From assembly GCA_038727135.1 (NCBI GenBank), contig JAVYWL010000001.1:1-64000 (forward strand): 64,000 bases of DNA. Reading direction: 5' to 3'. Made by a program: the position numbers and the translations under genes. Shown one piece after another: positions 1-43,776 of the stretch (position 1 is its first letter; every line of letters starts with the position of its first letter). The stretch is from Candidatus Bathyarchaeia archaeon (lineage in GTDB: Archaea; Thermoproteota; Bathyarchaeia; Bathyarchaeales; Bathycorpusculaceae). The notes under the pieces are model-generated. The model saw nothing but the letters and a program-made list of their open reading frames with translations, made no database searches and was not told the origin of the DNA.

Positions 1-139
1 GAACTTTTACAGCGTCTTTGTGGGCTCCAGCCTCAACTTGGATGCATGTTTTTTCGGGACGCAGAGATTTAGTTTGGAGTATCCTATCCCTAAGCGCATC
101 GCTTAAGGCTTTCAAAATCTCATCAATGTTTATCGACAT
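1..139 (-). CDS. NuoC-like subunit (5' part; runs off window)
   Basis: GGAGG + ATG at 139 overlapping the nuoB-like end; MSINIDEILKALSDALRDRILQTK... Assigned by operon position. Confidence 0.55.
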   Translation of the reverse strand, partial: MSINIDEILKALSDALRDRILQTKSLRPEKTCIQVEAGAHKDAVKV

Positions 140-572: not shown

Positions 573-901
573 TAACGGTCGCCTCCATCTAAAAGCAACA
601 AGCCAGACAAAAGGACAATGAATAAGTAAATTACGAAGAACAAAACATTTGCCATGTGAATAGCCAATGCAGCAAAAGCCGTCAACAGCACCGACGAGTC
701 CAAAATCACAAAGTATATAAGATATCTATAATGAGAAACGCTGACTTTCAATTTATCAAAATTCACCTTCTCACCACAAGCATAAGCAGATTTACCATTT
801 TCACTACGCATAGATTTAGGGGACAACAAACGTCCAAGCAAATAAATTATAGATGATACAGCCAGAATCAAAACAAAGGCAACAGCCAGCTCAATAATCG
901 T
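572..901 (-). CDS. nuoA: NuoA-like membrane subunit
   Basis: Three TM segments, AYACGE loop, YLIYFVILD; GGAGGT then ACG at 899-901 (TTG at 871 is the alternative). Confidence 0.75.
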   Translation of the reverse strand, partial: TIIELAVAFVLILAVSSIIYLLGRLLSPKSMRSENGKSAYACGEKVNFDKLKVSVSHYRYLIYFVILDSSVLLTAFAALAIHMANVLFFVIYLFIVLLSGLLLLDGGDR

Positions 902-1214
902 ATGCTTACCTCCTTAAACCCGATAATTATGCTTCACCCCTTGCGTTTTAACCACCTTCTTTAACCAAGTGCCACGACAACACATACGCTTTGTAGTACG
1001 CGCGAAACATGGACGCTATACCTGCTCTTTATTGCACTCATGGAAACAAACGGCAAGATTTAAATTTTATCAGAAATGCTCAAAGCTTCATACATAAGAG
1101 TGCATCCAACATCTTCCTAATTTTCCGTTAGTTGCAGTTAAACGCAGATATGCGTTCTTTTTACAGTTTTTCTTATTTTTGGGAGCCACGATAATATCTT
1201 TTTAATATTTAAGT

Positions 1215-1379
1215 CTAGACCTTTTTAGCATCAATCTGTTGATATGCCCACGTAGAATTTTGTATTAAGACTTTAATCACATCTTCATATGTGTGAATCT
1301 TGCCTGTTTCAGCTGTTAGTTTTCCGAGGATTTCTGTCAGCTTTTTGTGGGTTTCGTCGGATACTTTGATTGTTTTCAC
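1215..1379 (-). CDS. Small RHH/antitoxin-like DNA-binding protein (54 aa)
   Basis: Hand translation MKTIKVSDETHKKLTEILGKLTAETGKIHTYEDVIKVLI; below track cutoff. Confidence 0.65.
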   Translation of the reverse strand: MKTIKVSDETHKKLTEILGKLTAETGKIHTYEDVIKVLIQNSTWAYQQIDAKKV

Positions 1380-1382
1380 AGC

Positions 1383-1796
1383 TTATTCCTCCTTGATTCT
1401 CTTGCTTATGGGCCAGTCTTTCTGGGAGAGTATCTCCCTCACCTTTGGTATTTTTAGGGCGAATTCTACGTGGCGGCAGTTGTCCGTTCCACAGTATTCA
1501 CATATTATGCGGTCCGGCTTGAAGTATACGTCAACTATGCGCCCTCTTGAATAGCCATTTGCCAATGTGCGATCAAGAATGCGGACACCATTTTCGCTTA
1601 TGTTAAAGTGTTCAAGCGGAGGCACCTCAGGGGGCTGGGTAAAGATTTTTAGTTGTTCGCATTTTTCGCGAATAGCGTCTGTTACGAAGTCTGCGAGGCT
1701 TTTGTATCCCATTTCCGGATGCGCCCTAATGTATTCCTCTATCTTATTTACGAGCTCTCTGTTTAGGGTTATTCCCCTGTATTTGCCCACCGGCAT
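1383..1796 (-). CDS. RHH regulator with C-terminal CxxC-x4-CxH (SWIM-like) zinc motif
   Basis: YRGITLNRELV...YKSLADFVTDAIR; CEYCGTDNCRH. Confidence 0.7.
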   Translation of the reverse strand: MPVGKYRGITLNRELVNKIEEYIRAHPEMGYKSLADFVTDAIREKCEQLKIFTQPPEVPPLEHFNISENGVRILDRTLANGYSRGRIVDVYFKPDRIICEYCGTDNCRHVEFALKIPKVREILSQKDWPISKRIKEE

Positions 1797-1799
1797 ATA

Positions 1800-1920
1800 C
1801 CTTACCTAAACCTTATCTATACATTAGCAAAGCCTTAATAAATTTTCGGTCGCCACACTCCAGCCTTTTTATTTCCTCCGTTCAACAATTCTTATATTTT
1901 TAACCACATAAACACCACAT
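1800..1920. promoter_or_regulatory. Divergent promoter region with tandem operator-like repeats
   Basis: CCTTA(C/T)CTA at 1800 and 1811; ACCACAT at 1903 and 1914 (both 11-bp spacing); TATA-like boxes at ~1835-1842 (-) and ~1892-1897 (+). Confidence 0.5.
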
Positions 1921-24537: not shown

Positions 24538-25029
24538 TCATGGAAGAACAGCCAACAAAACCTCCACAATTCTCTTTGCCGCGGCCTCAACCTCCCCAGA
24601 CAAGCCTTCCCCAAAATCCGTGTTTTTAGGCTCTATCAATAGTAGGGCTATTTTAGCCCCTACCGTTTCGGCAAGGTAACCGCAGAAAACCCGAAGAGGA
24701 AGCATATGAGTCGAAATAGCCGGAAAGACCCGCAAGTGCTCGGGCTTGACAAGCCTACACTCGCCGGGCTCCAAACCCATAACAGCAGCATCAATAAGCA
24801 GAACATGTGAAGGCTTAAAATCAGCCATCTGCTGAAGGAAACTTTCAGGAACAGTCTCACACTCAATCAGCAAAACCTTCTCAGAAACTTTCCCATGCAA
24901 GTCGCGGACAACTTTAACGCCGACAAAATCATCCATACGGATAGGGTTGCCAATACCAGCAACAACAACCCTCTCTGCGCCGGAGAACCAATCCTTCAAC
25001 TTCTTCTCAAAAGAACCTTCCAACGACAA
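24538..25029 (-). CDS. hycI: Hydrogenase maturation protease
   Basis: GIGNPIRMDD, ETVPE, IDAA, STH. Confidence 0.9.
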   Translation of the reverse strand: MSLEGSFEKKLKDWFSGAERVVVAGIGNPIRMDDFVGVKVVRDLHGKVSEKVLLIECETVPESFLQQMADFKPSHVLLIDAAVMGLEPGECRLVKPEHLRVFPAISTHMLPLRVFCGYLAETVGAKIALLLIEPKNTDFGEGLSGEVEAAAKRIVEVLLAVLP

Positions 25030-25071
25030 AAGCTCTTCTCCAAAAATAAAAAGGAAGGAAAGGTGGAAGCT

Positions 25072-26526
25072 TTACCTCTGCACCGTCTTAACGAGTTTCC
25101 CTTCACTGTCGTAGATTTCCACAGTCAATGGCAACTGCCCAACAGCAAAGTGAGTAGCGCAACCAAAACATGGGTCATAAGCCCTAAAAGCCATCTCCAC
25201 CATGTTAAGCAAGCCTTGATCAACTTTGCCTCCATGAATCAAGCCCTTAGCCGCGTTCCTAACCGACATGTTAATCGAAGGAGCATTATTAACAGTAGCC
25301 ACAATCAGGTTGACATCCTTGATTAAAGCGTTCTCATCCAAAACATAATGGTGAATCAGCGTACCCCTAGCAGCCTCAACAACGCCAACGCCCTCGCCGG
25401 GCTTGCCAGGCTTATTCCTCACATTAGTGCTTGTTATTTCGGGGTCTTTAACAAGCTCAACAGCCCTCTCAGCCGCATACAAAAGTTCGATGAGCCTAGC
25501 CCAGTGATAAGCCAAAGTGGAGTGCACTGGTTTTCCGCCTAACGTCTTATACATGAGCTCATACTCCTCTTGGGCTAACGGCGTAGCCATGCCATCAGCA
25601 GCATTAAGCCTCCCCAAAGGACCAACACGGTAAATGCCACTTTCAAGACCGTCAACAAAGCCCTTCCAGCCAACCTTCTTCAAGTATGGCTGCTTCACAT
25701 AGGTCCATGGCTCCACCCGTTCGGCTATGTGCTCCAAATAATCCTTAGCCTCAAACTTTGCAAACTCCTTGCCGTTGGGGTCTACAACCCGTATTTTTCC
25801 GTCGTAAAAGTTCACCTTGTTATGCTCATCCACCAGACCCATATAATAGGTGCGCAGCGTGTAGGCGTCGCTCTTAATCAGCTCCACATACTTGGTGTTC
25901 TTCAAAACAATGTCGTGGAAAAGCTTCAAAGAAAACCTTGCAAAATCAACAGCTGAAGTAACCATCTTTTCAATTTCTTGGCGGTTCTCCTCGCTTAAAG
26001 GCTTAGATACCCCGCCCGGCAGCCCGCAGACCGGGTGAGTGGCTTTTCCACCAATCAACTCCACTATCCTCTGACCATAAGCCCTATGCTTAATAACCTC
26101 CTTGGCAACGTCCAAGCCAGCCTTCTCAATAACCCCAAGAATATTACGCTTTTCCGGCGGCGCGTCCGGACCGACAACAAAGTCTGGACCGCCCAAATAG
26201 TAGAAGTGTAATGTGTGATCGTAAATGTAGTAGCCACAGTACATGAGTTCGCGGAGTTTTTTGGCTGCTGACGGCGGCTCCACATTAAAGGCAGCATCCA
26301 AAGCCTTTGTCCCAGCCATGTGATGCGCCACTGGGCAGACACCGCAAATTCTGCTTGTTAAGAGCGGCATATCCTCGGCTTTCCGCCCAATACAGAACCT
26401 TTCAAAACCACGCAGCTCTGGGATCTGTAGGTAGGCGTTTTCCACCTCTCCGGCATCATTTAGGAATATGGCTATTTTACCGTGTCCCTCAAGCCTTGTG
26501 ATGGGGTCAATTATTATCTCTTTCAT
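25072..26526 (-). CDS. mvhA: [NiFe] hydrogenase large subunit (group 3c), copy 1
   Basis: TRLEGH, RICGVC, DPCFGCATH plus cleavable tail. Confidence 0.92.
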   Translation of the reverse strand: MKEIIIDPITRLEGHGKIAIFLNDAGEVENAYLQIPELRGFERFCIGRKAEDMPLLTSRICGVCPVAHHMAGTKALDAAFNVEPPSAAKKLRELMYCGYYIYDHTLHFYYLGGPDFVVGPDAPPEKRNILGVIEKAGLDVAKEVIKHRAYGQRIVELIGGKATHPVCGLPGGVSKPLSEENRQEIEKMVTSAVDFARFSLKLFHDIVLKNTKYVELIKSDAYTLRTYYMGLVDEHNKVNFYDGKIRVVDPNGKEFAKFEAKDYLEHIAERVEPWTYVKQPYLKKVGWKGFVDGLESGIYRVGPLGRLNAADGMATPLAQEEYELMYKTLGGKPVHSTLAYHWARLIELLYAAERAVELVKDPEITSTNVRNKPGKPGEGVGVVEAARGTLIHHYVLDENALIKDVNLIVATVNNAPSINMSVRNAAKGLIHGGKVDQGLLNMVEMAFRAYDPCFGCATHFAVGQLPLTVEIYDSEGKLVKTVQR

Positions 26527-27518
26527 TTGCGAATCACCTTCCTCCGCAAAATTGAAGCTGGCAAACCATACATGTAGAAGGTTCCAACAGGGTCCTTAAT
26601 CTGGTCTATAAGCTTTTCAACCTCCTCCTCAGTGTATTTCTCCTTCTCCTCCTCCAAGCCAAGAATCGAAGCCAAAGCGCTAATCATGGCAGCGCCTTGC
26701 TCCGGAGCATTTGGACATGGACCACCACAGCCGGTGCAGGGCATATCAGCCTTCAAGCATCTGGCGCTACAACCGCCCCTTGTGGCTGGTCCCATGCATA
26801 TAATGCCCTGCTCCAGTAGGCACCTTTCCGTGTCTGGAACCTTCTCGTAGACACGGTATATCCTCGATATCTTCTTATTCTCCTTCTTTTTTGGACACTC
26901 GTCGCAGACAGACTTTAAAGGCGCCAAAACAGAGCCTTTTGGCGGCAACTCGCCTTTAGCAATAGCTTCCAAGGCGAATATTGTGCGCTCCACCGCCGGC
27001 GGACAGCCAGGCACATAATAGTCAACATCCACTGTTTGGTCTAGGGTTCGCACGGTGTCATAGAACTCTGGAATTTCTAGCTCGCCTTCTTTAACATGCA
27101 CTTTCGGCTGTGGGAAAACTTTGTTGGGGTTGTCTGTTGAAAATGTTTTGGCGTAAACTTGTTCGAAGATTTCCTCTTTATTATGGAGGTTAGCCAGCCC
27201 GGGAACGCCGCCGAGATGGGCACAAGCACCATAAGCCACAAGAATCTTTGACTTCTGCCTTAAAAGTTTAGCCATATACTCTTGTTCGCTGTTTCGGATT
27301 CCACCATTAAAGAAGCAAACATCAATGTATTTGTCTGGCATGGCTTCAACATCTTTATACTTTATATCCATAGCAACAGGCCAAAACACAATGTCCGCGA
27401 TTTGCACCACATCCAAAATTTTTTCGTTGATGTCTAAGACGGCTATTTCGCAGCCGCCACAACTTGCCGCCCAGTAAAAGGCGAACTTCAATTTTTGTTT
27501 CGCCATATTCATATCCAC
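26523..27518 (-). CDS. mvhG: [NiFe] hydrogenase small subunit, copy 1
   Basis: ASCGGC, GACA, PGCPP, CMGPAT. Confidence 0.92.
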   Translation of the reverse strand: MDMNMAKQKLKFAFYWAASCGGCEIAVLDINEKILDVVQIADIVFWPVAMDIKYKDVEAMPDKYIDVCFFNGGIRNSEQEYMAKLLRQKSKILVAYGACAHLGGVPGLANLHNKEEIFEQVYAKTFSTDNPNKVFPQPKVHVKEGELEIPEFYDTVRTLDQTVDVDYYVPGCPPAVERTIFALEAIAKGELPPKGSVLAPLKSVCDECPKKKENKKISRIYRVYEKVPDTERCLLEQGIICMGPATRGGCSARCLKADMPCTGCGGPCPNAPEQGAAMISALASILGLEEEKEKYTEEEVEKLIDQIKDPVGTFYMYGLPASILRRKVIRK

Positions 27519-28397
27519 CTACTTAATTTGGCTCAATAATTCTGTTGGTTTTACCCTAAGCTCGTTTAGGGCTAGCTCTTCTGGCGAAAAGCCCATGGCT
27601 AATCCCAGTAGCTGTGGGTAGTGGAGGACTGGCAAATTGAATTTTTCGTTGAAGGCTCTCTCTATTCGGGGCTGGTTTAGGTCAAACATTATGTGACAGA
27701 AGGGACAAACAGTAATAAGTGCCTGAGCACCCACAGCCCTCACGTGGTCAAGTTTCTCTTTAGCCATTTGGAAGGGAACATCCTCATTTACGCCTATTAT
27801 CGGGTTTCCGCAGCACTCAGTCTCATCCATATAGTCTAGGCATTCGGCGCCCGTCAACCTAATCAACTCTTTAAGGGTTGTTGGGTTTTCTGGGTCATCC
27901 CGTCCAACATATTTGCGGGGTCTTAAAACGTGGCACCCGCTGTGTTGAGCTACACGGATACCAACCAGTGGCTTTTTGACGGCGTTCTTTATCTTCTCGT
28001 AGCCGACATCCTCTGAAAGCACGTAGATTAGGTGTTTAACTTCTATTGTGCCCTTAAACTCCATGCCAATTTCTTTCAAGTAGCCATTAATCTCGTCCCG
28101 GAGCTTCTTGTCCTCCTTTAGGATTTTGTTGGTTTCGTTTAGGCTGCAGAAGCACCCGTTGCACAGCGTCATTATAGGTAAGCCCACCTTTTCCGCTATG
28201 CAGAGGTTTCTCGCCGCCAAAGTCAACATCAGATCGTGATTTATAACGTCCATTGGGTAGCCGCAGCAGTTGTATTCTGGCATTTCAACAATTTCAACGC
28301 CAAGTTTTGCGAGAACTTTCCTGGCGGAAATTTCGTAGCTTGAAAGCCTATAGGGGATTACACAGCCCGGAAACAACAAATATTTTGAGTTGCTCAT
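27519..28397 (-). CDS. hdrB: Heterodisulfide reductase subunit B, copy 1
   Basis: Two CCG domains, HSGCH...RP, CPFC. Confidence 0.92.
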   Translation of the reverse strand: MSNSKYLLFPGCVIPYRLSSYEISARKVLAKLGVEIVEMPEYNCCGYPMDVINHDLMLTLAARNLCIAEKVGLPIMTLCNGCFCSLNETNKILKEDKKLRDEINGYLKEIGMEFKGTIEVKHLIYVLSEDVGYEKIKNAVKKPLVGIRVAQHSGCHVLRPRKYVGRDDPENPTTLKELIRLTGAECLDYMDETECCGNPIIGVNEDVPFQMAKEKLDHVRAVGAQALITVCPFCHIMFDLNQPRIERAFNEKFNLPVLHYPQLLGLAMGFSPEELALNELRVKPTELLSQIK

Positions 28398-28963
28398 TTA
28401 CTCTCCACCTTCGCAAAAGTTTGGACCTTTTCAAGCAAACCTGCGGAACCAGTAACCTCAAAAATCCTCATAACTTCTTTCACGTTTGGCTTCGGAAGTG
28501 GTGGAAGCCCCTGCTCAACCCGCTTTTGAAGCCTTGACTCGGGAATCTCATAGACAAAGCCACTTTTCATCAGATTTGTGGCTAACTCCTTGTAAACTAG
28601 TGGTAGAAGGTTTTTGTCCGCCACCGCCATGTTCCGCAAAACGCGAACTATACCAGCAATTTCCACACCTTGGGGACAGTGATCCACACATGTGAAGCAT
28701 GATGAGCAGAGCCACAAGGCTTTATCCAGTAAGAGCCTATCCTTCAAGCCTAGCTGAACCATGCGGGCTATTCGGCGTGGGCGGTAAAACTCACTGAATC
28801 TGGCGATTGGGCAGTCAGCTGTGCATGTTCCACATTGGAAGCAAACCATCACCTTTTCTGCGCCATGAATCTTGCTCATTTTATACTTGAACTTTGGGTC
28901 AAGCTCCTCAGCCTTAATCACTGGTGGAACGTATTCGCGGGCTTCGCTTTTTGTTTCGCTCAT
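28394..28963 (-). CDS. hdrC: Heterodisulfide reductase subunit C, copy 1
   Basis: [26 protein letters not shown]. Confidence 0.9.
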
Positions 28964-29400
28964 TTCTTTTCCTCCATCATTTTTAACGGGTTTGGACCCA
29001 GCTTCTTAATCTGTTCAACCATGTCCCTTACTACGGCTGCGAATTTGTCTCCCTCGCTGGCGGAGACCCATTCCAGCCGCACACGTTCAGGTTCTATCCC
29101 AAAATCTTTGAGCACCTTCTTTAATAGCGTTACCCTTCTCAAAGCCTTAAAATTACCACTGAGATAGTGGCAGTCGGATGGCAGGTGGCAGCCAGCCACC
29201 AAAACGCCGTCAGCACCATTTTTTAGGGCTTCAAGGATGAAGGCTGGGTCTATTCTGCCACTGCACATGACGCGGATAACACGGATGTTTGGCGGGTATT
29301 GGATGCGGCTTACACCAGCCAAGTCAGCGCCTGCATAAGCACACCAGTTGCATAGGAAACCAACAATTTTCGGTTCAAAATCTTTTGAGGGTTCGCTCAT
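28960..29400 (-). CDS. mvhD: MvhD [2Fe-2S] subunit
   Basis: FLCNWC, MCSGR, GCH...DCHY, WVSASEG. Confidence 0.93.
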
Positions 29401-32431: not shown

Positions 32432-33178
32432 TTATCGCACCTCCAAAGCCTTATACAAAGGCGTATAACCTTCAACATGGTCTAGGGCTATCATGCCCTT
32501 CCGCCTCATGTTCGTTATATGCCTCAAAACAGCAGAAGGCTTTATCCCGAGAATTTGGGCTAACTCCTTAACAGAGCGGGGCTTAATCCTCGCCAAGTGG
32601 TGGATTTTGTAGCGGATGAACTCAGCCCTAACAATATCATCTAATAGGGCGTCAAACTCCGCTTCTGGGATTTTCTCGCCATAAGCGTTCATAAATTCGG
32701 TTAGCTCTTCCTCTCTTCCAAGTAAAACGCGAAGCCTAAAGGCTGAAGCCGCCTCCTTAGCTGCTGTGAGATTGGCTACAATCTCCTCTTTGCTGAGCGG
32801 AGAATTTCCAAGCTTCCAAACCTCTTCGGAGAACACTTTGGCGTAGTGGCTGAAGTTTTTGTCTTCTAACGGTGAGACTAACAGGAGCTTCAGTCGTTCA
32901 GGCTCAAGTCCAGCCAATGCCAGCAACTTCTTCAACATTTTAACGGCGCGTTCAGCATGGAGGTTGCCATCAACAAAGTGGCAGTCTGGAGGCTTACACC
33001 CAACAAGCAGCACGCCTTCAGCCCCATTGACAAAAGTTTCCAGAATCAGCGCTGGGTCCATTCTTCCAACACACATAACGCGGATAACATTAACATTGTA
33101 AGGAACACGTATCTCTTCTTCGCAGAAGGCCCAATTACACATGAAACAAACAATTTTTGGAGGGTTAGAAGAATCCAT
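32432..33178 (-). CDS. MvhD-like protein fused to a C-terminal wHTH
   Basis: FMCNW, MCVGR, GCKPPDCH; SVKELAQILGIKPSAVLRHITNMRRKG. Confidence 0.8.
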   Translation of the reverse strand: MDSSNPPKIVCFMCNWAFCEEEIRVPYNVNVIRVMCVGRMDPALILETFVNGAEGVLLVGCKPPDCHFVDGNLHAERAVKMLKKLLALAGLEPERLKLLLVSPLEDKNFSHYAKVFSEEVWKLGNSPLSKEEIVANLTAAKEAASAFRLRVLLGREEELTEFMNAYGEKIPEAEFDALLDDIVRAEFIRYKIHHLARIKPRSVKELAQILGIKPSAVLRHITNMRRKGMIALDHVEGYTPLYKALEVR

Positions 33179-33185
33179 TTCTATT

Positions 33186-34901
33186 TCACCTCTCCAAGGC
33201 TGTTAAAACCATTGAGAGAATTTGCTCGTTAGAAAGCTTCTTCATAGTTATGGCTCTCTCTGGACAACGTGCTGCACAGAGTCCACAGCCCTTGCAAAGC
33301 TCCTCATTCACTTGGGCCACGCCCTTCTCGTTCTTTTTGATGGCGCCAACCGGGCAAATGACAGCACAGACATTGCAGCCCACGCATTTACCCTCATCCA
33401 CAACAGCCTTGTCACCCTCACATAAGTCCATGCTGGCGAGGCACTCCGCACATGGTCCACAACCCAGACAGCGGAAAGCTTCAAACCTTGCTTGACGCTT
33501 AAGCTTTTCAAGATACTCCCTTGCCTCTTCAAAACTCAAGTGAGGCTTCTCTATTGGAGCGTCGTATCTGCGCTCCTTTTTTTCCAGCAACCGCCAGTCC
33601 TTAACCCACGTGGTCTCTTCAATTTTCTCCTCTTCCCTATCCTTCCGCAAGTCCTCGCCCCTCAAATAACGGTGTATGGAAACCGCTGCACGCTTACCAG
33701 CACCAACAGCCTCGATGATGCTTGCTGGACCAGTGGCAACATCCCCACCAGCAAAAATCCCCGGAACATTAGTTTCCAATGTCATGGGGTCCACTTGCAG
33801 TGGCGGCCCCCGCTTCTCTTTGCTAATAAGTTCTGGGGGCAAAACAGATGTCTCAACAATCTGTCCAAGAGCAGGAATAACCATGTCAACCTCATATTGA
33901 TGTTCTGAAAAGGCAATCGGTATTGGGCGTCTTCTTCCAGTTTCGTCAGGCTCGCCCAAGCGCATTCTCAAGCATTCAACAGCCTTAACCCGCCCATTTT
34001 CGCCTATAATCTGCTTAGGAGCCACCAAGAAATAGAACTTTATTCCATCCTTCTCGGCAAGCTCCACTTCGTGGGGTAGCGCTGGCATCTCCTCGCGAGA
34101 ACGCCTATAAAGAATCATAACCTCCTTGGCGCCAAGCTTCTTAGCAGTTCTCGCAGCGTCTATGGCTGTGTTGCCACCGCCTATGACGGCTACTCTTTCG
34201 CCAACAGCTATTTTCTTGCCTAAAGCTATCGCCCTCAAAAAGTCAACAGCATTTATTACGCCCTCCAATTCCTCGCCTGGCACATTTAATTTCATGCCCA
34301 ATTGTGTACCGATGGCGAGGAAAATCGCCTTATAACCGTCCCTTTTAAGGCTTTCAATAGTTATGTCTTTGCCAAACTCAACGCCAGTCTTTATTTCAAC
34401 GCCTATGTCCTTTATGTAGGCAATTTCGTTTGCAACAACAAATTTTTCAAGTCGGAAGTCTGGTATGCAGTAGCGCATCATGCCGCCCGGCTCAGCCATC
34501 CGTTCAAAAACGGTAACCGGATAACCCAGCTTCGCAAGTTCATAAGCCGCTGTCAAACCAGCTGGCCCAGCACCGATTATGGCTATTTTCTCGCTGTACT
34601 TCTTTGGCACCGGTTCAGCAACAACTCTTCCTTGTTCGCGTTCGATGTCTGCCACAAGCCTCTTTAAGGCGCGTATAGCCACCGCCTGGTCAAGGTTTAC
34701 TCTTGCGCATGCATCTTCACATGGGCTGAAGCAAACCCTTCCGCAAATGGCTGGGAAGGGCATGTCCCGCCTTATGACTTCAACAGCTTCCTTAAACTTG
34801 CCCCTCTGGATAAGAGCCACATAAGCCTGAACATTGACATGTGCTGGACATGCTGCTCGACAAGGAGGTAATTTCCTAACCTCTTGTAATGGCTTTTCCA
34901 T
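33186..34901 (-). CDS. GltD/NfnB-like FAD/NAD(P) oxidoreductase with C-terminal ferredoxin
   Basis: PCRAACP, CGRVC, GAGPAG, GGGNTA, RCLGC, two CxxCxxC motifs. Confidence 0.85.
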   Translation of the reverse strand: MEKPLQEVRKLPPCRAACPAHVNVQAYVALIQRGKFKEAVEVIRRDMPFPAICGRVCFSPCEDACARVNLDQAVAIRALKRLVADIEREQGRVVAEPVPKKYSEKIAIIGAGPAGLTAAYELAKLGYPVTVFERMAEPGGMMRYCIPDFRLEKFVVANEIAYIKDIGVEIKTGVEFGKDITIESLKRDGYKAIFLAIGTQLGMKLNVPGEELEGVINAVDFLRAIALGKKIAVGERVAVIGGGNTAIDAARTAKKLGAKEVMILYRRSREEMPALPHEVELAEKDGIKFYFLVAPKQIIGENGRVKAVECLRMRLGEPDETGRRRPIPIAFSEHQYEVDMVIPALGQIVETSVLPPELISKEKRGPPLQVDPMTLETNVPGIFAGGDVATGPASIIEAVGAGKRAAVSIHRYLRGEDLRKDREEEKIEETTWVKDWRLLEKKERRYDAPIEKPHLSFEEAREYLEKLKRQARFEAFRCLGCGPCAECLASMDLCEGDKAVVDEGKCVGCNVCAVICPVGAIKKNEKGVAQVNEELCKGCGLCAARCPERAITMKKLSNEQILSMVLTALER

Positions 34902-35027
34902 CAAGGTTATCAGCCTTCTTAGAAGCATATTTGAATGTTAAACCAGATATATTAAGCCATCTAAACCAAACTTAACACAAAATTAACATAAAATTTCAAC
35001 ATAAAAAGAGGGGGAAATGGAGGGGGT

Positions 35028-35618
35028 TTATTCGCGAAGTCTTCCTTCGAGTTTGCTAACCCACTTGTTATATTCCCTAGAGCTTAGAAGGCTTTTGAGC
35101 TCCTCCTCAAGCGTCAAGGAGTTTTTGGGCTTGATCTCGACTATCCAACCCTCGCCATACGGATCTTCATTTACCAGGTAAGGCTTATCCTTCAATTTTT
35201 CGTTAATCTTAACGATTTTGCCGCTCACGGGCGCGTATAAATCAAACATAAACATCCAAGTTTCAGCTACACCGAAGGGCTCCATTTTGGCAACTTCCTT
35301 CCCAACGGGTTCGGTCATGATGTTTGCAATGCCTTTAAGATGCCTCTGGGCGTAGTCTGAAACACCCACACGGATGTTTCCTTCAGGGGTTATTTGCGCC
35401 CATGTGTGCTTCGGCGTGTATAGCAACTGCTCCGGAATAGCCAAAAGCTCTTCACGTTTTGCTGCTGGAATTCCCTCAGCCCGCATCAGCTCTTCTAAGC
35501 GCAGCCTTATGGCTTCGGAGACAAATTCTGATATGCTTCTGTATCGTCCTGTTCTTAGTAGTCTCTCGATTTCTTTTATTAGCTCTTGCCTTATGCTTAC
35601 GGTTTTCCATTCAGACAT
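35028..35618 (-). CDS. RHH-GcvH-like fusion lacking the lipoyl-lysine
   Basis: N-terminal RHH; HTW, GVSDYAQ, AETWMFMFDLYAPVSG, NEDPYGEGW. Confidence 0.85.
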   Translation of the reverse strand: MSEWKTVSIRQELIKEIERLLRTGRYRSISEFVSEAIRLRLEELMRAEGIPAAKREELLAIPEQLLYTPKHTWAQITPEGNIRVGVSDYAQRHLKGIANIMTEPVGKEVAKMEPFGVAETWMFMFDLYAPVSGKIVKINEKLKDKPYLVNEDPYGEGWIVEIKPKNSLTLEEELKSLLSSREYNKWVSKLEGRLRE

Positions 35619-35744
35619 TTCATATCAGCCTCCTTTACATCTGCGTGATATATAGAGCAAAGCAAAAGATATATATCTAACGTAAATAGAAAATATAGAA
35701 TAAATAATTGCGTCAAAGTAAATACTATAAATAGAGGGAAGCCT

Positions 35745-36818
35745 TTGGAAATTAGAAAAGTTCAAAGAGTAGGACATTCAACAATGACTGTTTCGCTTCC
35801 AAACGAGTGGATTAAAGAACACGGCATAAAGCCGCGAGACCTACTATTCATATTGCCAGAAAGGGACGGCTCCCTAAAAATAATGCCGAGGCACATAGCC
35901 CAAAAAGAGGAAGCCGAAGAATACATTGTTAATGCAGATGCATGCGACGAGCCGGGAATGCTTGAAAGAATAATTGTTGGAAGCTACATTCTAGGACGGG
36001 ATGTTATACGGGTAATCTCAACAAGCCGCATAGGTAAAAACCACGTAGACGAAGTTCGGAGGATAGTTCAAAAACTTATTGGGTTGGGCATCCTTGAAGA
36101 GACCCCTAAAAGCATACTCTTGCAGTGCTCTATAGACTCTACGAAGTTCAAACTTGACATGCTCATACGGAGGCTTGCCCTAATAGCTTCAACAATACTT
36201 TCTGAGGCTATGCAAGGCTTTAAGGAGAAAAAATATGACATTGTGGAGGAAGCCATCGCACGGGAAGACGAGGCTGACAAAATCTACTATTTGGCGGTGC
36301 GTCTGCTTCTTTCCGCGCAAGTGAAACCAGCCATAGCCGAAGAGGTTGGCATGGTTGACGTACTTTTTATACCAGCTGCAAGGCTGATTCTGCAGTACCT
36401 GGAGCTGGTGGCAGATTATTCCGAGGACTTAGCTAAGGAGGTTCTTGAAATGGAGATTTACAGAAATAGGCTTCCAGAGGATGTTGTTGACAGAATATTC
36501 CATTTAAGCGAGCTAACTCAGACAATTCTCCAGAAATCTATTGAATGCATCTTCACAAGGGATTTGAAGGTTGCAAACCAACTTCTTGAAATGAGAAAAG
36601 TGCTTGAGGTGGACTCCAATAGGCTTATGAGGGAAGCCCCAGAAATCCCCTATGTAAGGTCTATTCTCTCTTGCCTAAGCAAGATTGCTGACAAAGGCGC
36701 CACAATAGCTGAAATAGCCATAAACAGAGCCTTAGAAGATCCGAGCAGGTATGTTGGCGATGTTGTCAGAGCAGTTAAGCATGTTAGAACTCTACCATTG
36801 ACTATTGGAAAGAAATAG
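35745..36818 (+). CDS. phoU: AbrB-PhoU archaeal regulator
   Basis: RKVQRVG...VSLPNEW; EDEAD; ELVADY; KIAD. Confidence 0.85.
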   Translation: MEIRKVQRVGHSTMTVSLPNEWIKEHGIKPRDLLFILPERDGSLKIMPRHIAQKEEAEEYIVNADACDEPGMLERIIVGSYILGRDVIRVISTSRIGKNHVDEVRRIVQKLIGLGILEETPKSILLQCSIDSTKFKLDMLIRRLALIASTILSEAMQGFKEKKYDIVEEAIAREDEADKIYYLAVRLLLSAQVKPAIAEEVGMVDVLFIPAARLILQYLELVADYSEDLAKEVLEMEIYRNRLPEDVVDRIFHLSELTQTILQKSIECIFTRDLKVANQLLEMRKVLEVDSNRLMREAPEIPYVRSILSCLSKIADKGATIAEIAINRALEDPSRYVGDVVRAVKHVRTLPLTIGKK

Positions 36819-36909: not shown

Positions 36910-37374
36910 ATGAGTGATGATTTTGAAGAGGCTTTAAGGAACATAGACGTCTTCTGCAAAGTTTTAGCCAAAAAACTGGTGGAAAGCCTTAGGATAGAAG
37001 AAAGCGAGGGAGAAAATCCCCTAGAGCCTATGGAGGGGCTTTTGAAAAGGAAGTATGTTATTGAGGAAAGGTTCGAGGAAAGCCCAACCGTCAAACATTT
37101 TATTCCACTGCCCCATGCTGAAGAGCCCTTAATAGACATTTTTGAAGACGAAAATTATGTTAAGGTTCTGATGCAGTGCCGCTGCAGAGACCAGCGGGTG
37201 ACAGTAAACAAGTTTGAGGATGGCTTACAAATATGCTTGGAAAATACTTGCTGGAAGCTCAACCTTCCAGTTGATGAGCTGCAAGTGGAAAACATAATTA
37301 TGAAGTGCAACAACAATGAGGCTTTGGAGGTTGAAATTCCGAAGTTAAAGACAACTGTAAACTACAGAAATTAA
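36910..37374 (+). CDS. Hsp20-like protein
   Basis: EPLIDIFEDENYVKV; NNNEALEVEIPK. Confidence 0.6.
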   Translation: MSDDFEEALRNIDVFCKVLAKKLVESLRIEESEGENPLEPMEGLLKRKYVIEERFEESPTVKHFIPLPHAEEPLIDIFEDENYVKVLMQCRCRDQRVTVNKFEDGLQICLENTCWKLNLPVDELQVENIIMKCNNNEALEVEIPKLKTTVNYRN

Positions 37375-37649: not shown

Positions 37650-38102
37650 TTAAATTGTGAGAACCGCGTTTAAGCCCTCCGTTTTAGCTGCCTCATAAAC
37701 CCTTTTATCGCCAGTTAAGAAGTTCGTGGCATTTACCGCTTTAGCGGACACTATTTGGAGGGCGTCCGCCTGATACAAATGATGCTTTTCTAAGAGGCGC
37801 CAGCTTTCAATAAGTAACCTAAAACGTATAGGAATTAGCCTTAAAACTCCTAAACGGGCAAGCCTTCTAGTTTCTAGGAGGAACTTGCCTTTGGCTATTA
37901 AGTAATTTCTATTGCTTAATATGCCTCTTACGTGGGCTTTGTCAAAGGCGCCGAGCACCTCGCCTATGTTCCAAGAGTTGAATGTGATGGTTAATTCGCC
38001 AGAATAGGCTTTAAGATAAACCTCTTTAGCAATTTTACTTCCAGGCTCCTTGACGTAACGTTTAACCAGACTACTGGAATCAAGATAGACTACTTCTTTC
38101 AT
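37650..38102 (-). CDS. vapC: PIN-domain toxin
   Basis: YLDSSSLVKRY, E, ADALQI, TGD. Confidence 0.88.
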   Translation of the reverse strand: MKEVVYLDSSSLVKRYVKEPGSKIAKEVYLKAYSGELTITFNSWNIGEVLGAFDKAHVRGILSNRNYLIAKGKFLLETRRLARLGVLRLIPIRFRLLIESWRLLEKHHLYQADALQIVSAKAVNATNFLTGDKRVYEAAKTEGLNAVLTI

Positions 38103-38346
38103 CCCTCATAGTCCTCACAAGGGTACTTACAAGGCCTTTTTTAGGCTTAACAGGCTCAAAATCTATCTCATAGTCTTCAGTGTTTTCTATGTCTTTAACA
38201 GCCTCGTCGAGGAGTTCCTCTACAAGCTCATCCTTAATGAGGTCTTCAAGGGCTTGACTTATTTCTAGGCCTCTCCTCGCTAGGCTTGATTTGTACTTTT
38301 CCCATAGCTCCTTGTCTGCATATATGCTGGTTTTTACTTTGCCCAC
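38080..38346 (-). CDS. RHH antitoxin (VapB-type)
   Basis: KTSIYADKELW; overlaps the vapC start. Confidence 0.75.
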   Translation of the reverse strand: MGKVKTSIYADKELWEKYKSSLARRGLEISQALEDLIKDELVEELLDEAVKDIENTEDYEIDFEPVKPKKGLVSTLVRTMRDERSSLS

Positions 38347-38456: not shown

Positions 38457-39332
38457 TCAGCCAATTTTTTCTAAAACTTTGTCGATTTTTATCTTGTGGA
38501 AGTCTAGTGCGAGTTCTTTTGGCTCTACTCCTAGGCTTAGGCTTAATAGTTCGGCGTAGTGGATTATTGGTATGTTGTACTCTTCCTTGTAGGTGGTTTT
38601 TATCAGCATTTGTCCAAGGTCAAGGGTTAGGAAGCAGAAGGGACATAGGGTTGATATGCAGTCTGCCCCAGCGTTGTAGGCGTTTACAATTTTGTCTCTT
38701 GCTATAGCTAGTGCCACATCGTCTGCATAGCCTCTTAGGAGTCCTCCGCAGCATCGCAGCTTATTCTTATATGGTATGCTTTTGGCGCCTAGAGCCTCTA
38801 TCAGGGTGTCGAATATGCGGGGGCGTTCTGGATCGTCAAAGCGTAGGAGTTCGCTTGGGCGTAGTAGGTGGCATCCTGAAAAGGCGGCTACCTTAAGATT
38901 GTTTAACGGTTTGATAATGCTTCGTCTTAAGCGGTTTACGCCTATATCATTCATTAAGACCTGTAGGTAATGCCTAACCTCTTTTATGCCTTTAAACTCC
39001 TTGCCAGTGTTGGCTAAAATCTTATTGACCTTTTCACGTAGTTCCGGCTTTTCTTTTAATAGGCGATTTGCAATTGTTAGGGATTCAAAGCATCCAGTGC
39101 AAAGCGTGAGTATGTTTAGGTCTGCTTCTTCCGCTAGGCAAATGTTGTAGGCGGCTATTGCCAAGCTTGTTTCCAAGTCTATTGACTGAAGTGGTGGCGG
39201 AGCGCAACACGTTGCGCCTTCCATGTCTACGAGTTGTATTCCGAGTTTTGTTAGGGCTTTTCTTGCGGCGAGTTCATAGTGGGGCTGGCGGGCGGGTATT
39301 GTGCAGCCTAAAAACAAGGCGTAGCTTGTCAT
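38457..39332 (-). CDS. hdrB: Heterodisulfide reductase subunit B, copy 2
   Basis: FLGC, CC, GCH...RP, CCGG, CPFC. Confidence 0.9.
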   Translation of the reverse strand: MTSYALFLGCTIPARQPHYELAARKALTKLGIQLVDMEGATCCAPPPLQSIDLETSLAIAAYNICLAEEADLNILTLCTGCFESLTIANRLLKEKPELREKVNKILANTGKEFKGIKEVRHYLQVLMNDIGVNRLRRSIIKPLNNLKVAAFSGCHLLRPSELLRFDDPERPRIFDTLIEALGAKSIPYKNKLRCCGGLLRGYADDVALAIARDKIVNAYNAGADCISTLCPFCFLTLDLGQMLIKTTYKEEYNIPIIHYAELLSLSLGVEPKELALDFHKIKIDKVLEKIG

Positions 39333-39844
39333 TGCGGTGTACCCTCCTTCTTAAACATGACTTTGTCGAAGCCTGTCGCCGCCAGAATCTTTTTTATGGC
39401 TTCTATATCTGCTGGTTTTAGTGTTGGTAATCCATAGTCAGCCCTTTTCTTTTCCAGGAATTTCGAGATGGGGGCTAGACGTCCCTCGCTTAGGAGTCCT
39501 GTGGCGAATTCTGTGTATATGGCGGGTATGTTGCCTTCGCGAATGGCTATGTTTCTTAGGGCGTATATCACATCTGCAATCTCAACTTTTTGTGGGCAGC
39601 GTTCTTGGCAGTTGTAGCATGAGGCGCAAAGCCATATAGCGTCGCCCTTTAGAACTTCGTCTCTTTGCCCTAGTAGGGCTAGCCTTATTATTTGGCGGGG
39701 GTTGTAGCGTTCTGTCGTTCTCGCGACTGGGCATGTGCTGGCGCATGTGCCGCACTGGTAGCAGCGGGTTATTGTTTCTCCGCCGAGTCTGCTGGTTATT
39801 TCCCTTGCAAAATCGCGGGGTTTTTCTTCAGCCATTTTGCTCAC
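39329..39844 (-). CDS. hdrC: Heterodisulfide reductase subunit C, copy 2
   Basis: CYQCGTCASTCP, WLCASCYNCQERCP. Confidence 0.9.
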   Translation of the reverse strand: MSKMAEEKPRDFAREITSRLGGETITRCYQCGTCASTCPVARTTERYNPRQIIRLALLGQRDEVLKGDAIWLCASCYNCQERCPQKVEIADVIYALRNIAIREGNIPAIYTEFATGLLSEGRLAPISKFLEKKRADYGLPTLKPADIEAIKKILAATGFDKVMFKKEGTPQ

Positions 39845-39866
39845 CTTTTGCAGTGTTCGCTTTAAG

Positions 39867-42359
39867 CTAGGCGAGTTGAAGTGAGCCTAGCCTTTCCACT
39901 TTTTCGGTCATGGCTTTGGCTGCTTCTGCGAATTTGTCGCCTTCTATGAAGACTAGGTTGAACATTTCGAGTCTTTCTGGTTCTATGCCATAGGCTTGGA
40001 GAAGCGTCTTCGCCATTTCCACCTTTCTTTGGGCTTTTTGGCTTCCAACCTCGTAGTGGCATCCGTCGGGCTTGCACCCCACCACCATAACGCCTTGGGC
40101 TCCAGCCTTAAAGGCTTCGAGAATATGCTGAACTTGGATTATGCCCGTGCATGGAACTCGTAGCACTCTAACGTTGGCTGGGTAGCTCATCATAGCCATT
40201 CCAGAAGAGTCTATGGCTGCGTGGCCACATTCTGAACAGCTGAAGGCCAGCACCAGCGGCTTTGAAGTGCCATTAATAGACAACAGCGCCTTTATTTGGG
40301 CCGATATTTGACTTGGCTTTAGATGGCGAAGCTCTATGGCGCCCACTGGGCATGTGCCAACACATACTCCGCAGCCCTCGCATAAAAGTTCTGAAACCTT
40401 AGCCACAAAGTGGCCGTCGCCCTTCGGCTCAAGAGTTATGGCGTTGTATGGGCATGTTACTGGGCAGAACTGGCAATTGCCACAATAATCCTCGTTTACA
40501 ACGGCCACCTTCGAGTCCTTGACTATTTTGCCATTCATAAGGAATTTGGCTGCCTTAACAGCCGCTGAATGGGCATGGAGCGAAGCTGTTGGGGCATCCT
40601 TCGGGAAGACAGCGCCACCACATATGAATATGCCTCTCCGTTTTGTTTCAGTAGGCCTGAGCTTGGCGTTGTACTCCTTAAAGAAACCGTCTTGGTCCAA
40701 TTCTATGCCTAGGATTTTCGCCAGCTCCTTTGCGTCTTCAGATGGCACCATGGCTGTGGCTAAAACCACTAGGTCTGCTTCCAATTCCAAGAGCCTTCTT
40801 AGAAGCTCGTCTTCAACCTCGACAACAAGCATGTTTGTGGCTGGGTCGTGGATTATTTCGGACGGCCTTCCCTTAACGAATTTAACGCCCATTTCTCTTG
40901 CTCTCTCATAATAGTATTCGTGTTCCCTGCCTGTTGTGCGAATATCTATGTAGCATATGGTCACATCCGCGTCTGGAAAGGCCTCCTTAATCAGCGTGGC
41001 ATGCTTCAGCGAAATCATACAGCAAATGCTTGAGCAGTAGGGATTCCAGCGCCGGTCCCTTGAGCCAACACATTGTACAAAGACGATACGTTTTGCCGGT
41101 TTTCTGTCTGAAGGCTTAACTGGCACCCCGCCTGTCGGGCCGAAAGCGTCCAGCATCCTCGCCAATTCCAAATGCGTTATCACGTCTGGATATTCGCCAT
41201 AGTGGTACTCCTTTATGACGCTTGGGTCATATTCTCGGAAACCGGTAGCCACAATTATGCTCCCGACGTTAAGTGTCACATATTCAGTTTTCTGGTCCAG
41301 ATTGACGGCTTTTGTTGGGCAAACCTCAACGCATTTGGCGCATTCATGGAACTTGCAGGCTTTGGCGTCTATGGCGTAGGCCGGTGGGTAAACCAAAGGC
41401 TTGTTTATGTAGATGGCTTTCCGCTTTGTGAGCTTGGCGTTATATTCGTCTGGCACTTCGACGGGACAGACGCTTGTGCATAGGTCGCATGCCACACACT
41501 TTTTCTCGTCCACATAGCGGGGTTTCCGTTCAACAGTCACCTTGAAGTTCCCCGGGCCGCCCTCAACCTTCACGACTTTAGCGTTTGTCAAAACACTCAA
41601 GTTTGGAATCTCTGAGAAGCCGGAACGGTAAACGCATTTCCTCGATGTTTGGGTCACAGTTTTTAGGTCCGTTGCTGGAGACTGAATGCATATGGCACAG
41701 TCGTCCGTCGGGAAGAAACGGACAGCTTTAGCAGCTAAACCACCCAAAAAAGGCTCTTTCTCTATCAAGTGAACTTGGAAGCCCATGTCCGCCAAGTCTT
41801 CGGCTGCTTGCATTCCAGCTATTCCGCCGCCAATAACAAGGATGGATTTGAGGGCTGGGAATTCGGCTTTCTCTATTGGTTCCAGAAGCTTGGCCTTTTC
41901 AATGGCAGCTAGGAGCATTGCCTTAGCTTTTTCAGTAGCCTCTCTCGGCGTGTTCCTGTGAGGCCATGCGCAATGATCTTTTAAGTCTAAAACCTCCACC
42001 AAATGCGGGTTAAGTCCAACCTCTTCAACTGCTTTTGCAATGGCTATTTCGCTTATTTTTGGTATCGTCTCTGCGACGACGACACGGTTTATCTTCTTGG
42101 TTTTAATGGCGTCTACTATAGTTTTTAGGCCTTCACCCCGCCAGAACTCGCTTCCCCTAGCGACAAGAGCAACCCCTGGAACAGTCTTAACAAAGTTTGT
42201 TAAGGCTTCAAAATCGAGGATTTTTGCTATTTGCCCACCGCAGTCGGATAGGAAGACTCCAACTTTTGCCTCTTCAACAGTTTTCACCTTCGTCTCCCTC
42301 CTTTTTCTCCTTACAACTTTACCTTTTGATTCTTTGGATGAGCCTTTTCTCGCTGTCAT
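39867..42359 (-). CDS. hdrA: HdrA-MvhD fusion
   Basis: GGAGGTGG + ATG at 42359; GGGIAG, FPTDDC, CVGSRD...CCM; C-terminal CSEC, PCTG, GCKPDGCHY. Confidence 0.88.
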   Translation of the reverse strand: MTARKGSSKESKGKVVRRKRRETKVKTVEEAKVGVFLSDCGGQIAKILDFEALTNFVKTVPGVALVARGSEFWRGEGLKTIVDAIKTKKINRVVVAETIPKISEIAIAKAVEEVGLNPHLVEVLDLKDHCAWPHRNTPREATEKAKAMLLAAIEKAKLLEPIEKAEFPALKSILVIGGGIAGMQAAEDLADMGFQVHLIEKEPFLGGLAAKAVRFFPTDDCAICIQSPATDLKTVTQTSRKCVYRSGFSEIPNLSVLTNAKVVKVEGGPGNFKVTVERKPRYVDEKKCVACDLCTSVCPVEVPDEYNAKLTKRKAIYINKPLVYPPAYAIDAKACKFHECAKCVEVCPTKAVNLDQKTEYVTLNVGSIIVATGFREYDPSVIKEYHYGEYPDVITHLELARMLDAFGPTGGVPVKPSDRKPAKRIVFVQCVGSRDRRWNPYCSSICCMISLKHATLIKEAFPDADVTICYIDIRTTGREHEYYYERAREMGVKFVKGRPSEIIHDPATNMLVVEVEDELLRRLLELEADLVVLATAMVPSEDAKELAKILGIELDQDGFFKEYNAKLRPTETKRRGIFICGGAVFPKDAPTASLHAHSAAVKAAKFLMNGKIVKDSKVAVVNEDYCGNCQFCPVTCPYNAITLEPKGDGHFVAKVSELLCEGCGVCVGTCPVGAIELRHLKPSQISAQIKALLSINGTSKPLVLAFSCSECGHAAIDSSGMAMMSYPANVRVLRVPCTGIIQVQHILEAFKAGAQGVMVVGCKPDGCHYEVGSQKAQRKVEMAKTLLQAYGIEPERLEMFNLVFIEGDKFAEAAKAMTEKVERLGSLQLA

Positions 42360-43776
42360 AAATTTCCACCTCCAAAGGCATTTGGCCAACGGCAAAATGA
42401 GTGGCGCATGCGAAACATGGGTCATAAGCCCTAAAGGCCATTTCAATCATGTTTAATATGCCGTCGGTCACTTTGCCCTTCTTGATTAAGCCTTTGGCTG
42501 CATCCCTAATTGACATGCAAATGCCGGGAACATTATGCGTAGTAGCCACAATCAGGTTGACTTTCTTGGCTAGGGCGTTCTCGTCCAGCTGGTAATGGTG
42601 TATAAGCGTTCCACGGGCGGCTTCCACGATGCCCACGCCTTCTCCCGGTTTGCCGGGTTTGTTGCGAATGTTTTTGCTTGTTATTTCCGGGTCTGTTACA
42701 AGTTCTAGGGCGCGTTCAGCCGCATACAATAATTCAATAAGCCTTGCCCAGTGGTAAGCCAATGTGTTATGAACTGGTTTTCCGCCTAGTGTGGAGTACA
42801 TGCGCTCGTATTCGGCTTGGGCTAGGGGTGTTGCCATGCCATCAGCCGCATTAAGTCTTCCAAGAGGACCGACACGGTATACGCCGTTTTCGGCTCCATC
42901 TATGAAGCCTTTCCATCCCACTTTTTTCAGATATGGAAGTTTAACGTAGGTCCATGGCTCCACACGCTCTTCAATAACGTCCAAATACTCTTTAGGTGAG
43001 AATTTGACGAATTCGCGTCCGTTGGGGTCTACTACGCGGACGTTTCCGTCGTAGAAGTTTACTTTGTTATTTTTGTCCACCAAGCCCATATAGTAGGTTT
43101 TGAGCGTGTATGCCGCGCTTTTAATCAAGTCCACGTAAGCAGTGTTTTTCAGCACTATGTCGTCGAAGAGTTTCAGCGAGAACTTGGCGAATTCTAGGCA
43201 ACTTCTTACCATGCGCTCAATTTCCCGGCGCTCTTCTTCTGAGATTGGCCTTGCAAATCCGCCGGGGATGCATGCGCTTACCGGGTGGGTTGCTTTTCCG
43301 CCTAAAATTTCCGTTATTTTTTGGCCATAAGCCCTATGCTTTATAACCTCCTTGCCTATTTCAAGGCCTGCCTTCTCAATGACACCTAGAACGTTGCGTT
43401 TTTCTGGTGGCGCGTCTGGTCCCACAACAAAGTCGGGGCCGCCAAGATAGTAGAAGTGTAGTGTGTGGTCGTATAGGTAGTAGCCGCAGTACATAAGCTC
43501 GCGGAGTTTTTTAGCTGGCTCTGGCGGTTCAACGTTGAAGGCGGCGTCTAGGGCTTTGGCGCTGGCCATGTGGTGGGCCACTGGGCATACGCCACATATG
43601 CGGGGCGTTATGATGGGCAGATCTTCGGCTCTGCGGCCTTCACAGAATTTTTCGAAGCCGCGGAGTTCCGGGACTTGGAAGTAGGCTTCGTCCACGTCGC
43701 CCTCTTCGTTTAGGAATATGGTTATTTTTCCGTGGCCCTCCAGCCTTGTTATTGGATTTATAACTATCTCTTTCAT
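42319..43776 (-). CDS. mvhA: [NiFe] hydrogenase large subunit, copy 2
   Basis: RICGVC, DPCFACATH. Confidence 0.92.
   Translation of the reverse strand: MKEIVINPITRLEGHGKITIFLNEEGDVDEAYFQVPELRGFEKFCEGRRAEDLPIITPRICGVCPVAHHMASAKALDAAFNVEPPEPAKKLRELMYCGYYLYDHTLHFYYLGGPDFVVGPDAPPEKRNVLGVIEKAGLEIGKEVIKHRAYGQKITEILGGKATHPVSACIPGGFARPISEEERREIERMVRSCLEFAKFSLKLFDDIVLKNTAYVDLIKSAAYTLKTYYMGLVDKNNKVNFYDGNVRVVDPNGREFVKFSPKEYLDVIEERVEPWTYVKLPYLKKVGWKGFIDGAENGVYRVGPLGRLNAADGMATPLAQAEYERMYSTLGGKPVHNTLAYHWARLIELLYAAERALELVTDPEITSKNIRNKPGKPGEGVGIVEAARGTLIHHYQLDENALAKKVNLIVATTHNVPGICMSIRDAAKGLIKKGKVTDGILNMIEMAFRAYDPCFACATHFAVGQMPLEVEIYDSEKRLIQRIKR

Follow-up and report, generated by a model that had tools for sequence, protein, structure and literature searches.

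Our analyses revealed that the gene heading the heterodisulfide reductase (Hdr) cluster in the window (the whole stretch of 64,000 nucleotides of Bathyarchaeia DNA that was analysed) encodes a fusion of a ribbon-helix-helix (RHH) head with an intact GcvH fold from which the lipoyl-lysine has been lost. This protein, hereafter RHH-GcvH', is probably a gene regulator and not a metabolic carrier, and the most economical reading of its architecture would be that of a one-component regulator. It is well supported as an object and unproven as a mechanism, and may be regarded as a variant of the RHH one-component regulators. A preliminary description of this DNA had proposed the fusion, the exchange of Lys for Met at 35253-35255 in a hairpin reading ETWMFMFD, and the position at the head of an Hdr cluster, all of which the results below bear out. 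The features of the locus are collected in Table 1.

Table 1. Features of the RHH-GcvH' locus, with positions in the window
Feature	Position	Strand	Basis
RHH-GcvH' gene, 196 aa	35028..35618	-	ORF list and sequence; Pfam GCV_H and RHH_1
Ribbon-helix-helix domain, residues 1-47 (strand WKTVSIR, helix A 9-22, helix B 29-47)	35478..35618	-	RHH_1 scan, NikR profile match, AF2 helices
GcvH-fold domain, residues 65-188, without lipoylation site	35055..35426	-	GCV_H E 5.7e-31; genome search; Foldseek
Former lipoyl hairpin E119-T-W-M-F-M-F-D126	35241..35264	-	Alignment to 3ift; family column counts
Divergent promoter region common to RHH-GcvH' and AbrB-PhoU, 126 bp	35619..35744	.	Conserved across order
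AAGGAGG in divergent region	35629-35635		
Two TATATAT elements ~21 bp apart, candidate operators	35646-35676		Inference
Near-palindrome TAGTATTTACT, candidate operator	35716-35727		Conserved across order
C/T-rich tract running into T5 immediately past the stop; possible archaeal terminator	34999..35027	-	Similar tracts at most orthologous loci
Candidate NfnB-like promoter: TTAGATGGCTTAATATAT after direct repeat TGTTAA-N5-TGTTAA	34947..34988	-	Conserved within the family
NfnB/GltD-like flavoprotein, 580 aa; Fer4_20, Pyr_redox_2, 2x[4Fe-4S] tail	33186..34928	-	Pfam
MvhD (FlpD) with C-terminal winged helix-turn-helix (wHTH)	32432..33178	-	Pfam FlpD E 1.1e-31, HTH_20 E 7.6e-6 (ArsR-like)
Double HdrA-like flavoprotein, 1010 aa	29397..32429	-	Pfam; synteny
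MvhD, HdrC, HdrB, MvhG, MvhA, HycI-type protease	24538..29400	-	Pfam FlpD, Fer4_8, CCG, Oxidored_q6, NiFeSe_Hases, HycI
AbrB(SpoVT)-PhoU protein, 357 aa, divergent	35745..36818	+	Pfam PhoU E 3.1e-14, MazE/AbrB E 9.4e-6

The open reading frame (35028-35618, minus strand) begins with ATG and has AAGGAGG 8 nt upstream. Pfam searches with the full-length protein gave a complete GCV_H domain over residues 65-188 (E 5.7e-31), and a match to RHH_1 over residues 6-43 (E 0.0018) whose 18.6 bits are under the 20.5 cut-off. When the N-terminal 54 residues were scanned alone, RHH_1 was found at 22.3 bits, over that cut-off, and the N-termini of 16 of 19 orthologues matched the same model, the best with an E of 5.2e-7. 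Comparison of a profile of the head with solved structures identified the RHH domain of H. pylori NikR (E 0.016). Seven residues of the head are invariant among the orthologues (W4, L13, S30, F32, E35, A36 and R40), and its best-kept parts, even across paralogues, are the strand WKTV(S/R)(I/V)R and the start of helix B. An AlphaFold2 monomer model computed from 32 members of the family (mean pLDDT 81.9) has helices at residues 9-22 and 29-47, a linker helix and the C-terminal domain; residues 1-8 are unstructured in this monomer, with no N-terminal strand. The C-terminal domain of the model superimposes closely on solved H-proteins (1onl, 3ab9 and 3klr; Foldseek), with TM scores, normalised to the target, of 0.91-0.93 and rmsd values of 1.1-1.8 A.

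The loss of the lipoylation site is evident from alignment to H-proteins of known structure. A phmmer search of the PDB aligned ETWMFMFD of the query with ESTKSVSD of the Mycobacterium tuberculosis GcvH 3ift, such that Met122 (codon 35253-35255) occupies the position of the lipoyl-lysine and an ESVKAVSD hairpin has become ETWMFMFD. Of 401 sampled genomes of the class, 43 have a full-length match at E < 1e-60, together contributing 44 loci and 53 fusion proteins. None of the 53 has a lysine in that column, whereas the four canonical H-proteins in the same alignment all keep it. The preliminary description had suggested that homologs be checked for the fusion, the Lys-to-Met change and the hdr linkage, with strain-specific decay as the alternative outcome. 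Fusion, lysine loss and linkage proved to be conserved, and decay was not borne out; methionine as the replacement is common, not universal, being found in 43 of the 53 proteins (W in six, L in two, N and F in one each).

These comparative data also refute the notion that the gene has been misread and is just an ordinary GcvH or one in decay, through a strain-specific lysine loss or a spurious N-terminal extension, a notion to which we assign practically no probability. It owes what plausibility it has to database practice, since RHH-GcvH' passes the looser NCBIfam subfamily model PRK01202 (125.3 bits versus 117), which accounts for its being named GcvH, as it is in NCBI and JGI records. However, it does not pass the TIGR00527 equivalog model (103.6 bits versus a cut-off of 115.85), the lysine is missing from 53/53 proteins of 43 genomes with a conserved replacement, and the N-terminal domain is itself conserved and RHH-like. 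Moreover, a canonical GcvH of 139 aa, with VESVKAVSD and hence the lysine, is encoded elsewhere in the genome (C1:697239), as are GcvT (C1:728555) and GcvPA/PB (C4:119950), none of which is in the RHH-GcvH' locus. Given this separate lysine-bearing GcvH with GcvT and GcvPA/PB, and two genes of the BPL/LplA family on another contig than RHH-GcvH', the fusion is dispensable as a carrier. The surroundings of the canonical gene (L001, G000:C1:695739-699095) are noted here in their own right: GcvH (1474-1893, minus strand) is followed after 3 nt by a 448-aa flavoprotein (124-1470, minus strand) with Pyr_redox_2 and Pyr_redox_dim domains, of the single-Cys CoA-disulfide-reductase/NADH-oxidase type, and not by gcvT or gcvP; this flavoprotein may be a stand-in for the L-protein.

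All 43 fusion-bearing genomes belong to the order of the source genome, 23 to its own family and 20 to other families, and within that family there are large genera in the 401-genome sample that do not have the fusion. Among contigs chosen at one genome per species, the full fusion is present at 18 loci, with 57-97% identity, beyond which the matches fall sharply to at most 45% identity and cover the GcvH part only. A protein database search returned 1262 relatives; the best 120 of these, which come from metagenome bins of Bathyarchaeia, are 195-202 aa long, 83-100% identical and annotated as 'glycine cleavage system protein GcvH'. An ESM Atlas search returned only the family's own clusters, labelled GCV_H. 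The hairpin, as ETWMF(M/I/K/V)F(D/E), is nearly invariant among orthologues that range from 57 to 100% identity, and this constancy indicates purifying selection on a new function. A Cu(I)-binding Met motif (W..M.M, as in CusF) was considered for the hairpin and rejected, because the second Met is not constant (M/K/I/V/R) and WWFTY is found in paralogues.

Between paralogues the hairpin is a different matter. A second class has E(T/S)WWFT(Y/H/F)D and a third ETTSN(K/R)LF, others have insertions such as ETVARWPLVIHD, and the variety as a whole includes WMFMF, WWFTY, TSNRLFV and ARWPLVIH; one hairpin class is labelled Baldrarchaeota in one record. Tandem paralogues with differing hairpins occur at nine of the 44 loci and at three further loci of a synteny comparison, as well as at most of the fusion loci found by way of NfnB-like orthologues, and a database protein of 417 aa (P0121, two members) holds both paralogues in a single chain. 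Judged from sequence, the tandem pairs and the single-chain protein would fit the pairing of RHH domains, and hairpin variability between paralogues fits better with varied specificity or a varied interface than with a single lipoate pocket.

Several variants depart from the full-length form. At one locus (L090, G062:C65, 3001-3584, minus strand) the RHH and GcvH' parts, the latter with hairpin ETWLFMFN, lie in different frames, reflecting a split gene, a frameshift or faulty assembly. Two loci (L091, G238:C33; L092, G020:C10) hold an extra copy without lysine (VETWMFMFD) and without a recognisable RHH domain, in genomes that also have the full fusion, and proteins P0125 and P0126 are similar stand-alone forms without lysine. 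GcvH homologues with neither lysine nor RHH (P0146, P0161, P0175, P0184, P0223 and P0238, with hairpins such as IEAWNLILD, IESSRMVMD and VESVLAASD) were also present in the 50% library, so H-protein folds without the lysine may be spread more widely than the RHH-GcvH' family.

RHH-GcvH' is the first gene of a co-directional run of NfnB-like, MvhD-wHTH, HdrA, MvhD, HdrCB, MvhGA and HycI genes, a cluster that includes a [NiFe] hydrogenase and is of the reductive Mvh/Hdr type, not of the sHdr type. Neither McrA nor ComA was found in this genome. The most constant neighbour of the fusion is the AbrB-PhoU gene, which lies divergently upstream at 41 of the 44 loci. The NfnB-like/MvhD-wHTH/HdrA cluster is downstream at 35 of the 44: directly, in the order NfnB-like, MvhD-wHTH, HdrA, at 31, after an intervening TauE-type permease gene at three, and as MvhD-wHTH/HdrA with no NfnB-like match at one. 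Eight loci have TauE alone after the fusion, recognised through Pfam at one and through tblastn at the other seven; the downstream DNA examined there showed no hdr genes, three of these loci having under 2 kb of it. At the remaining locus the fusion lies at a contig end. Seen from the other side, NfnB-like orthologues with at least 63% identity were found at 39 loci in 38 genomes, and 36 of the 39 have the fusion upstream; the three that do not comprise two contig ends and one run of N. The linkage between the fusion and the NfnB-like operon is therefore tight and two-way. MvhD-wHTH was tried as a co-occurrence marker and found not to be diagnostic: full-length relatives are found in numerous genomes of this order, including hdr arrangements that have no RHH-GcvH', and the specific tie is consequently to the NfnB-like operon.

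So tight a linkage raises the possibility that RHH-GcvH' belongs to the NfnB-like/Hdr/Mvh complex as a structural or assembly subunit, its H-protein-like domain docking on a flavoprotein much as GcvH does on its partners, and its RHH domain serving dimerisation only, with no binding of DNA. Such a subunit would be consistent with the relationship of the NfnB-like protein (Pyr_redox_2) to the L-protein, a GcvH-binding enzyme of the same broad flavoprotein superfamily. The MvhD of the same operon also bears a wHTH, so domains of DNA-binding type possibly have a role here that does not involve DNA. In the deeper lineages, moreover, the candidate NfnB-like promoter that is kept within the source genome's family is missing and the gap between the fusion and the NfnB-like gene is only 15-60 bp, which suggests co-transcription and would also be compatible with a complex subunit. 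Nevertheless, we think a subunit unlikely, if well short of negligible. It would not be expected to stand before TauE with no hdr cluster within the DNA examined (8/44 loci), in the one family where the permease replaces that cluster and where a search of 47 genomes identified NfnB-like orthologues in just 4; persistence of the fusion before TauE without hdr genes is as expected of a regulator able to switch targets. Conservation of the head is highest at the strand residues with which RHH domains normally touch DNA, and in the source genome's family the NfnB-like gene is preceded by an oligo-T tract and a separate promoter-like box. We count this box, the tract and the order-wide promoter architecture of the fusion itself as possible signs of a regulator.

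Other genes of the region deserve mention. A second heterodisulfide reductase set (38457-42446, minus strand), composed of an HdrA-MvhD fusion (859 aa), HdrC and HdrB, is kept upstream of AbrB-PhoU in most related loci. A 154-aa open reading frame with no Pfam match (36910-37374, plus strand) comes after AbrB-PhoU and is likewise kept at most of them. The stretch separating the two hdr clusters holds a likely VapBC-type toxin-antitoxin pair (37650-38346, minus strand), in which the gene for a PIN-domain protein (E 1.1e-7) overlaps the 88-aa open reading frame upstream of it. That the RHH domain is itself part of a toxin-antitoxin system was considered and rejected, as RHH-GcvH' has no adjacent toxin gene and the PIN pair is separate from it. 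A hydrophobic open reading frame of ~90 aa with a conserved ...AISWR..A...YY.HER.W... lies between the divergent AbrB-PhoU and RHH-GcvH' genes at loci L007-L016 (e.g., at about 7690-7960 of L008) and is absent from the source locus. At one locus of the TauE-context family (L014, 2527-7359, plus strand), five genes for an NAD(P)-linked [NiFe] hydrogenase come after the permease (2Fe-2S thioredoxin-like, Nuo51-like, Fer2_4, small and large subunits).

The preliminary description went further than a regulator and proposed a sensor of lipoate or octanoate, or else a decoy for the partners of lipoyl proteins, hinting that lipoyl disulfides are the Hdr substrate. The regulator survives as the most economical reading of the architecture. 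For its ligand being free lipoate or octanoate, or for a decoy of enzymes that recognise lipoyl proteins, with lipoyl disulfide as the implied Hdr substrate, we see very little likelihood. The domain is derived from a lipoyl carrier, and the genome does have a lipoylation target and BPL/LplA-family genes. There are also precedents of a kind. One study describes LbpA, a GcvH-like lipoate-binding protein that works with the sHdr complexes of sulfur-oxidising systems and resembles RHH-GcvH' in being a GcvH paralogue encoded with hdr-type genes (PMC6067878), and another places a GcvH gene inside an Hdr/hydrogenase cluster of Culexarchaeia (PMC9723716). However, LbpA has a lipoylated lysine and is a carrier, whereas RHH-GcvH' has no lysine and has an RHH domain. 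Unlike an sHdr locus, the genes around RHH-GcvH' (NfnB-like, MvhD, HdrA, HdrCB, MvhGA and HycI) include no dedicated lipoate ligase or maturation genes. The analogy with LbpA and sHdr drawn in the preliminary description is weak, because the cluster is of the Mvh/Hdr type with a [NiFe] hydrogenase. Pfam searches of the neighbours identified no lipoate ligase, lipoyl synthase or lipoyl-protein gene in the locus, and no LipA matching TIGR00510 was found in the genome, which is 94.7% complete. The strong variability of the hairpin between paralogues and a TauE context unconnected to lipoate argue in the same direction. No result pointed to lipoate, octanoate or a decoy, and no basis was found for lipoyl disulfides as the Hdr substrate.

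Upstream of the fusion, a common arrangement was found throughout the order: a near-palindrome (T)AGTATTTACT(A), then ATATA(A/G)CATTA(Y)GTATATAT, about 12 nt, CTATATATCA and AAGGAGG. The core of the near-palindrome, GTAWWTAC, lies ~20 nt from the start of AbrB-PhoU and 78-99 nt from that of the fusion, and at 8 of the 13 loci with a small gene inserted between the two, each promoter has a GTAWWTAC copy of its own. Downstream of the fusion, CCC..TTTTT tracts similar to that in Table 1 follow the stop codon in most orthologous loci and lineages. Scans of the source genome identified four matches to TAGTATTTACTA at up to one mismatch, seven scattered matches to GCATTA.GTATATAT at up to two mismatches, and the two-TATATAT element at this locus only. 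The candidate operator motifs were thus not enriched elsewhere in the genome, giving no support for a regulon, and because of this the conserved motifs may be operators or simply core promoter elements.

The spacing of the two TATATAT elements brings in a further alternative, that the GcvH-like domain serves oligomerisation only, with W-M-F hairpins packing together so that two RHH dimers become a tetramer spanning the pair of elements ~21 bp apart; the protein would then be a constitutive factor, with the signal entering via AbrB-PhoU. RHH regulators such as NikR and Mnt commonly require a second domain to form the tetramer, a surface hairpin has here been exchanged for bulky hydrophobic residues, the two conserved elements are two helical turns apart, and AbrB-PhoU is a constant partner gene (41/44 loci). 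The diversity of hairpins among paralogues, however, suggests specificity and not a generic interface, and we judge a purely oligomerising domain to be an unlikely explanation.

On balance, we give a somewhat better than even chance to RHH-GcvH' being a NikR-style RHH transcription factor in which the lipoylation-dead H-protein domain is an effector or oligomerisation module and which controls itself and the neighbouring operon. The data show the architecture, the loss of the lysine, the family's conservation under selection and the tight gene linkage in both directions; the binding of DNA, the genes controlled, oligomerisation and the kind of signal are what we infer, as follows, for this putative transcription factor, which would be specific to one order of the Bathyarchaeia. 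Its RHH head would pair with that of a second copy to form a two-stranded ribbon that reads DNA. The C-terminal H-protein, its lipoylation site lost, would have been retained as the regulatory part, serving as a module that binds an effector or partner or as the interface that joins dimers into higher oligomers. The most likely target would be the conserved elements in its own divergent promoter, common to AbrB-PhoU, followed by control of the adjacent NfnB-like/Hdr/Mvh operon or, in one family, of the TauE-type permease. Regulation would probably be exerted together with AbrB-PhoU.

A more specific and more speculative role for the dead H-protein domain is that of a mimic of the lipoyl arm, the W-M-F hairpin plugging the substrate channel of a disulfide/flavin enzyme in the NfnB-like/Hdr complex, or the domain binding the thiol/disulfide substrate of that complex, so that a DNA-binding protein reads its occupancy or redox state. 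We rate such a mimic as quite improbable; if it were true, it would represent a new kind of enzyme-coupled transcription switch, for an electron-bifurcating complex, and would provide a handle on the Hdr substrate of non-methanogenic archaea.

RHH-GcvH' has the fold of GcvH (PF01597, TIGR00527), with 36-39% identity to solved H-proteins and the flanking Glu and Asp of the hairpin kept, and differs in having no lipoyl-lysine, an added RHH domain and no adjoining gcvT or gcvP. It shares with NikR an N-terminal RHH domain of the CopG/Arc/MetJ type followed by a non-DNA-binding domain of ~130 residues, as well as one-component logic; however, its C-terminal domain is a barrel-sandwich H-protein fold, whereas that of NikR is an ACT-like nickel-binding tetramerisation domain, and the NCBIfam NikR models match RHH-GcvH' at E 0.06-0.17. 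Diverged H-protein folds outside glycine cleavage are also represented by the chlamydial 'not_gcvH' (TIGR03077), GcvH_rel_desulf (NF045810) and the Firmicutes GcvH-L. RHH-GcvH' scores 45 bits against the first two, which have cut-offs of 144 and 150, and Foldseek ranked GcvH-L (5a35) far under the canonical H-proteins. We know of none of these relatives with an RHH domain, and our literature search found no paper on an RHH-GcvH fusion.

These findings have consequences for annotation as well as for biology. Hundreds of entries named GcvH represent a systematic misannotation, one that would inflate calls of glycine cleavage and of the reductive glycine pathway in metagenome studies. The family would also be a clean case of a cofactor-carrier fold that has been turned to regulation. 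The Bathyarchaeia are abundant and uncultured archaea, and their Hdr/Mvh-type complexes have no known heterodisulfide substrate. A putative regulator tied almost one-to-one to an NfnB-like/Hdr/Mvh operon therefore offers an experimental entry point, since the ligand or partner of its dead H-protein domain should reveal the signal to which the operon responds.
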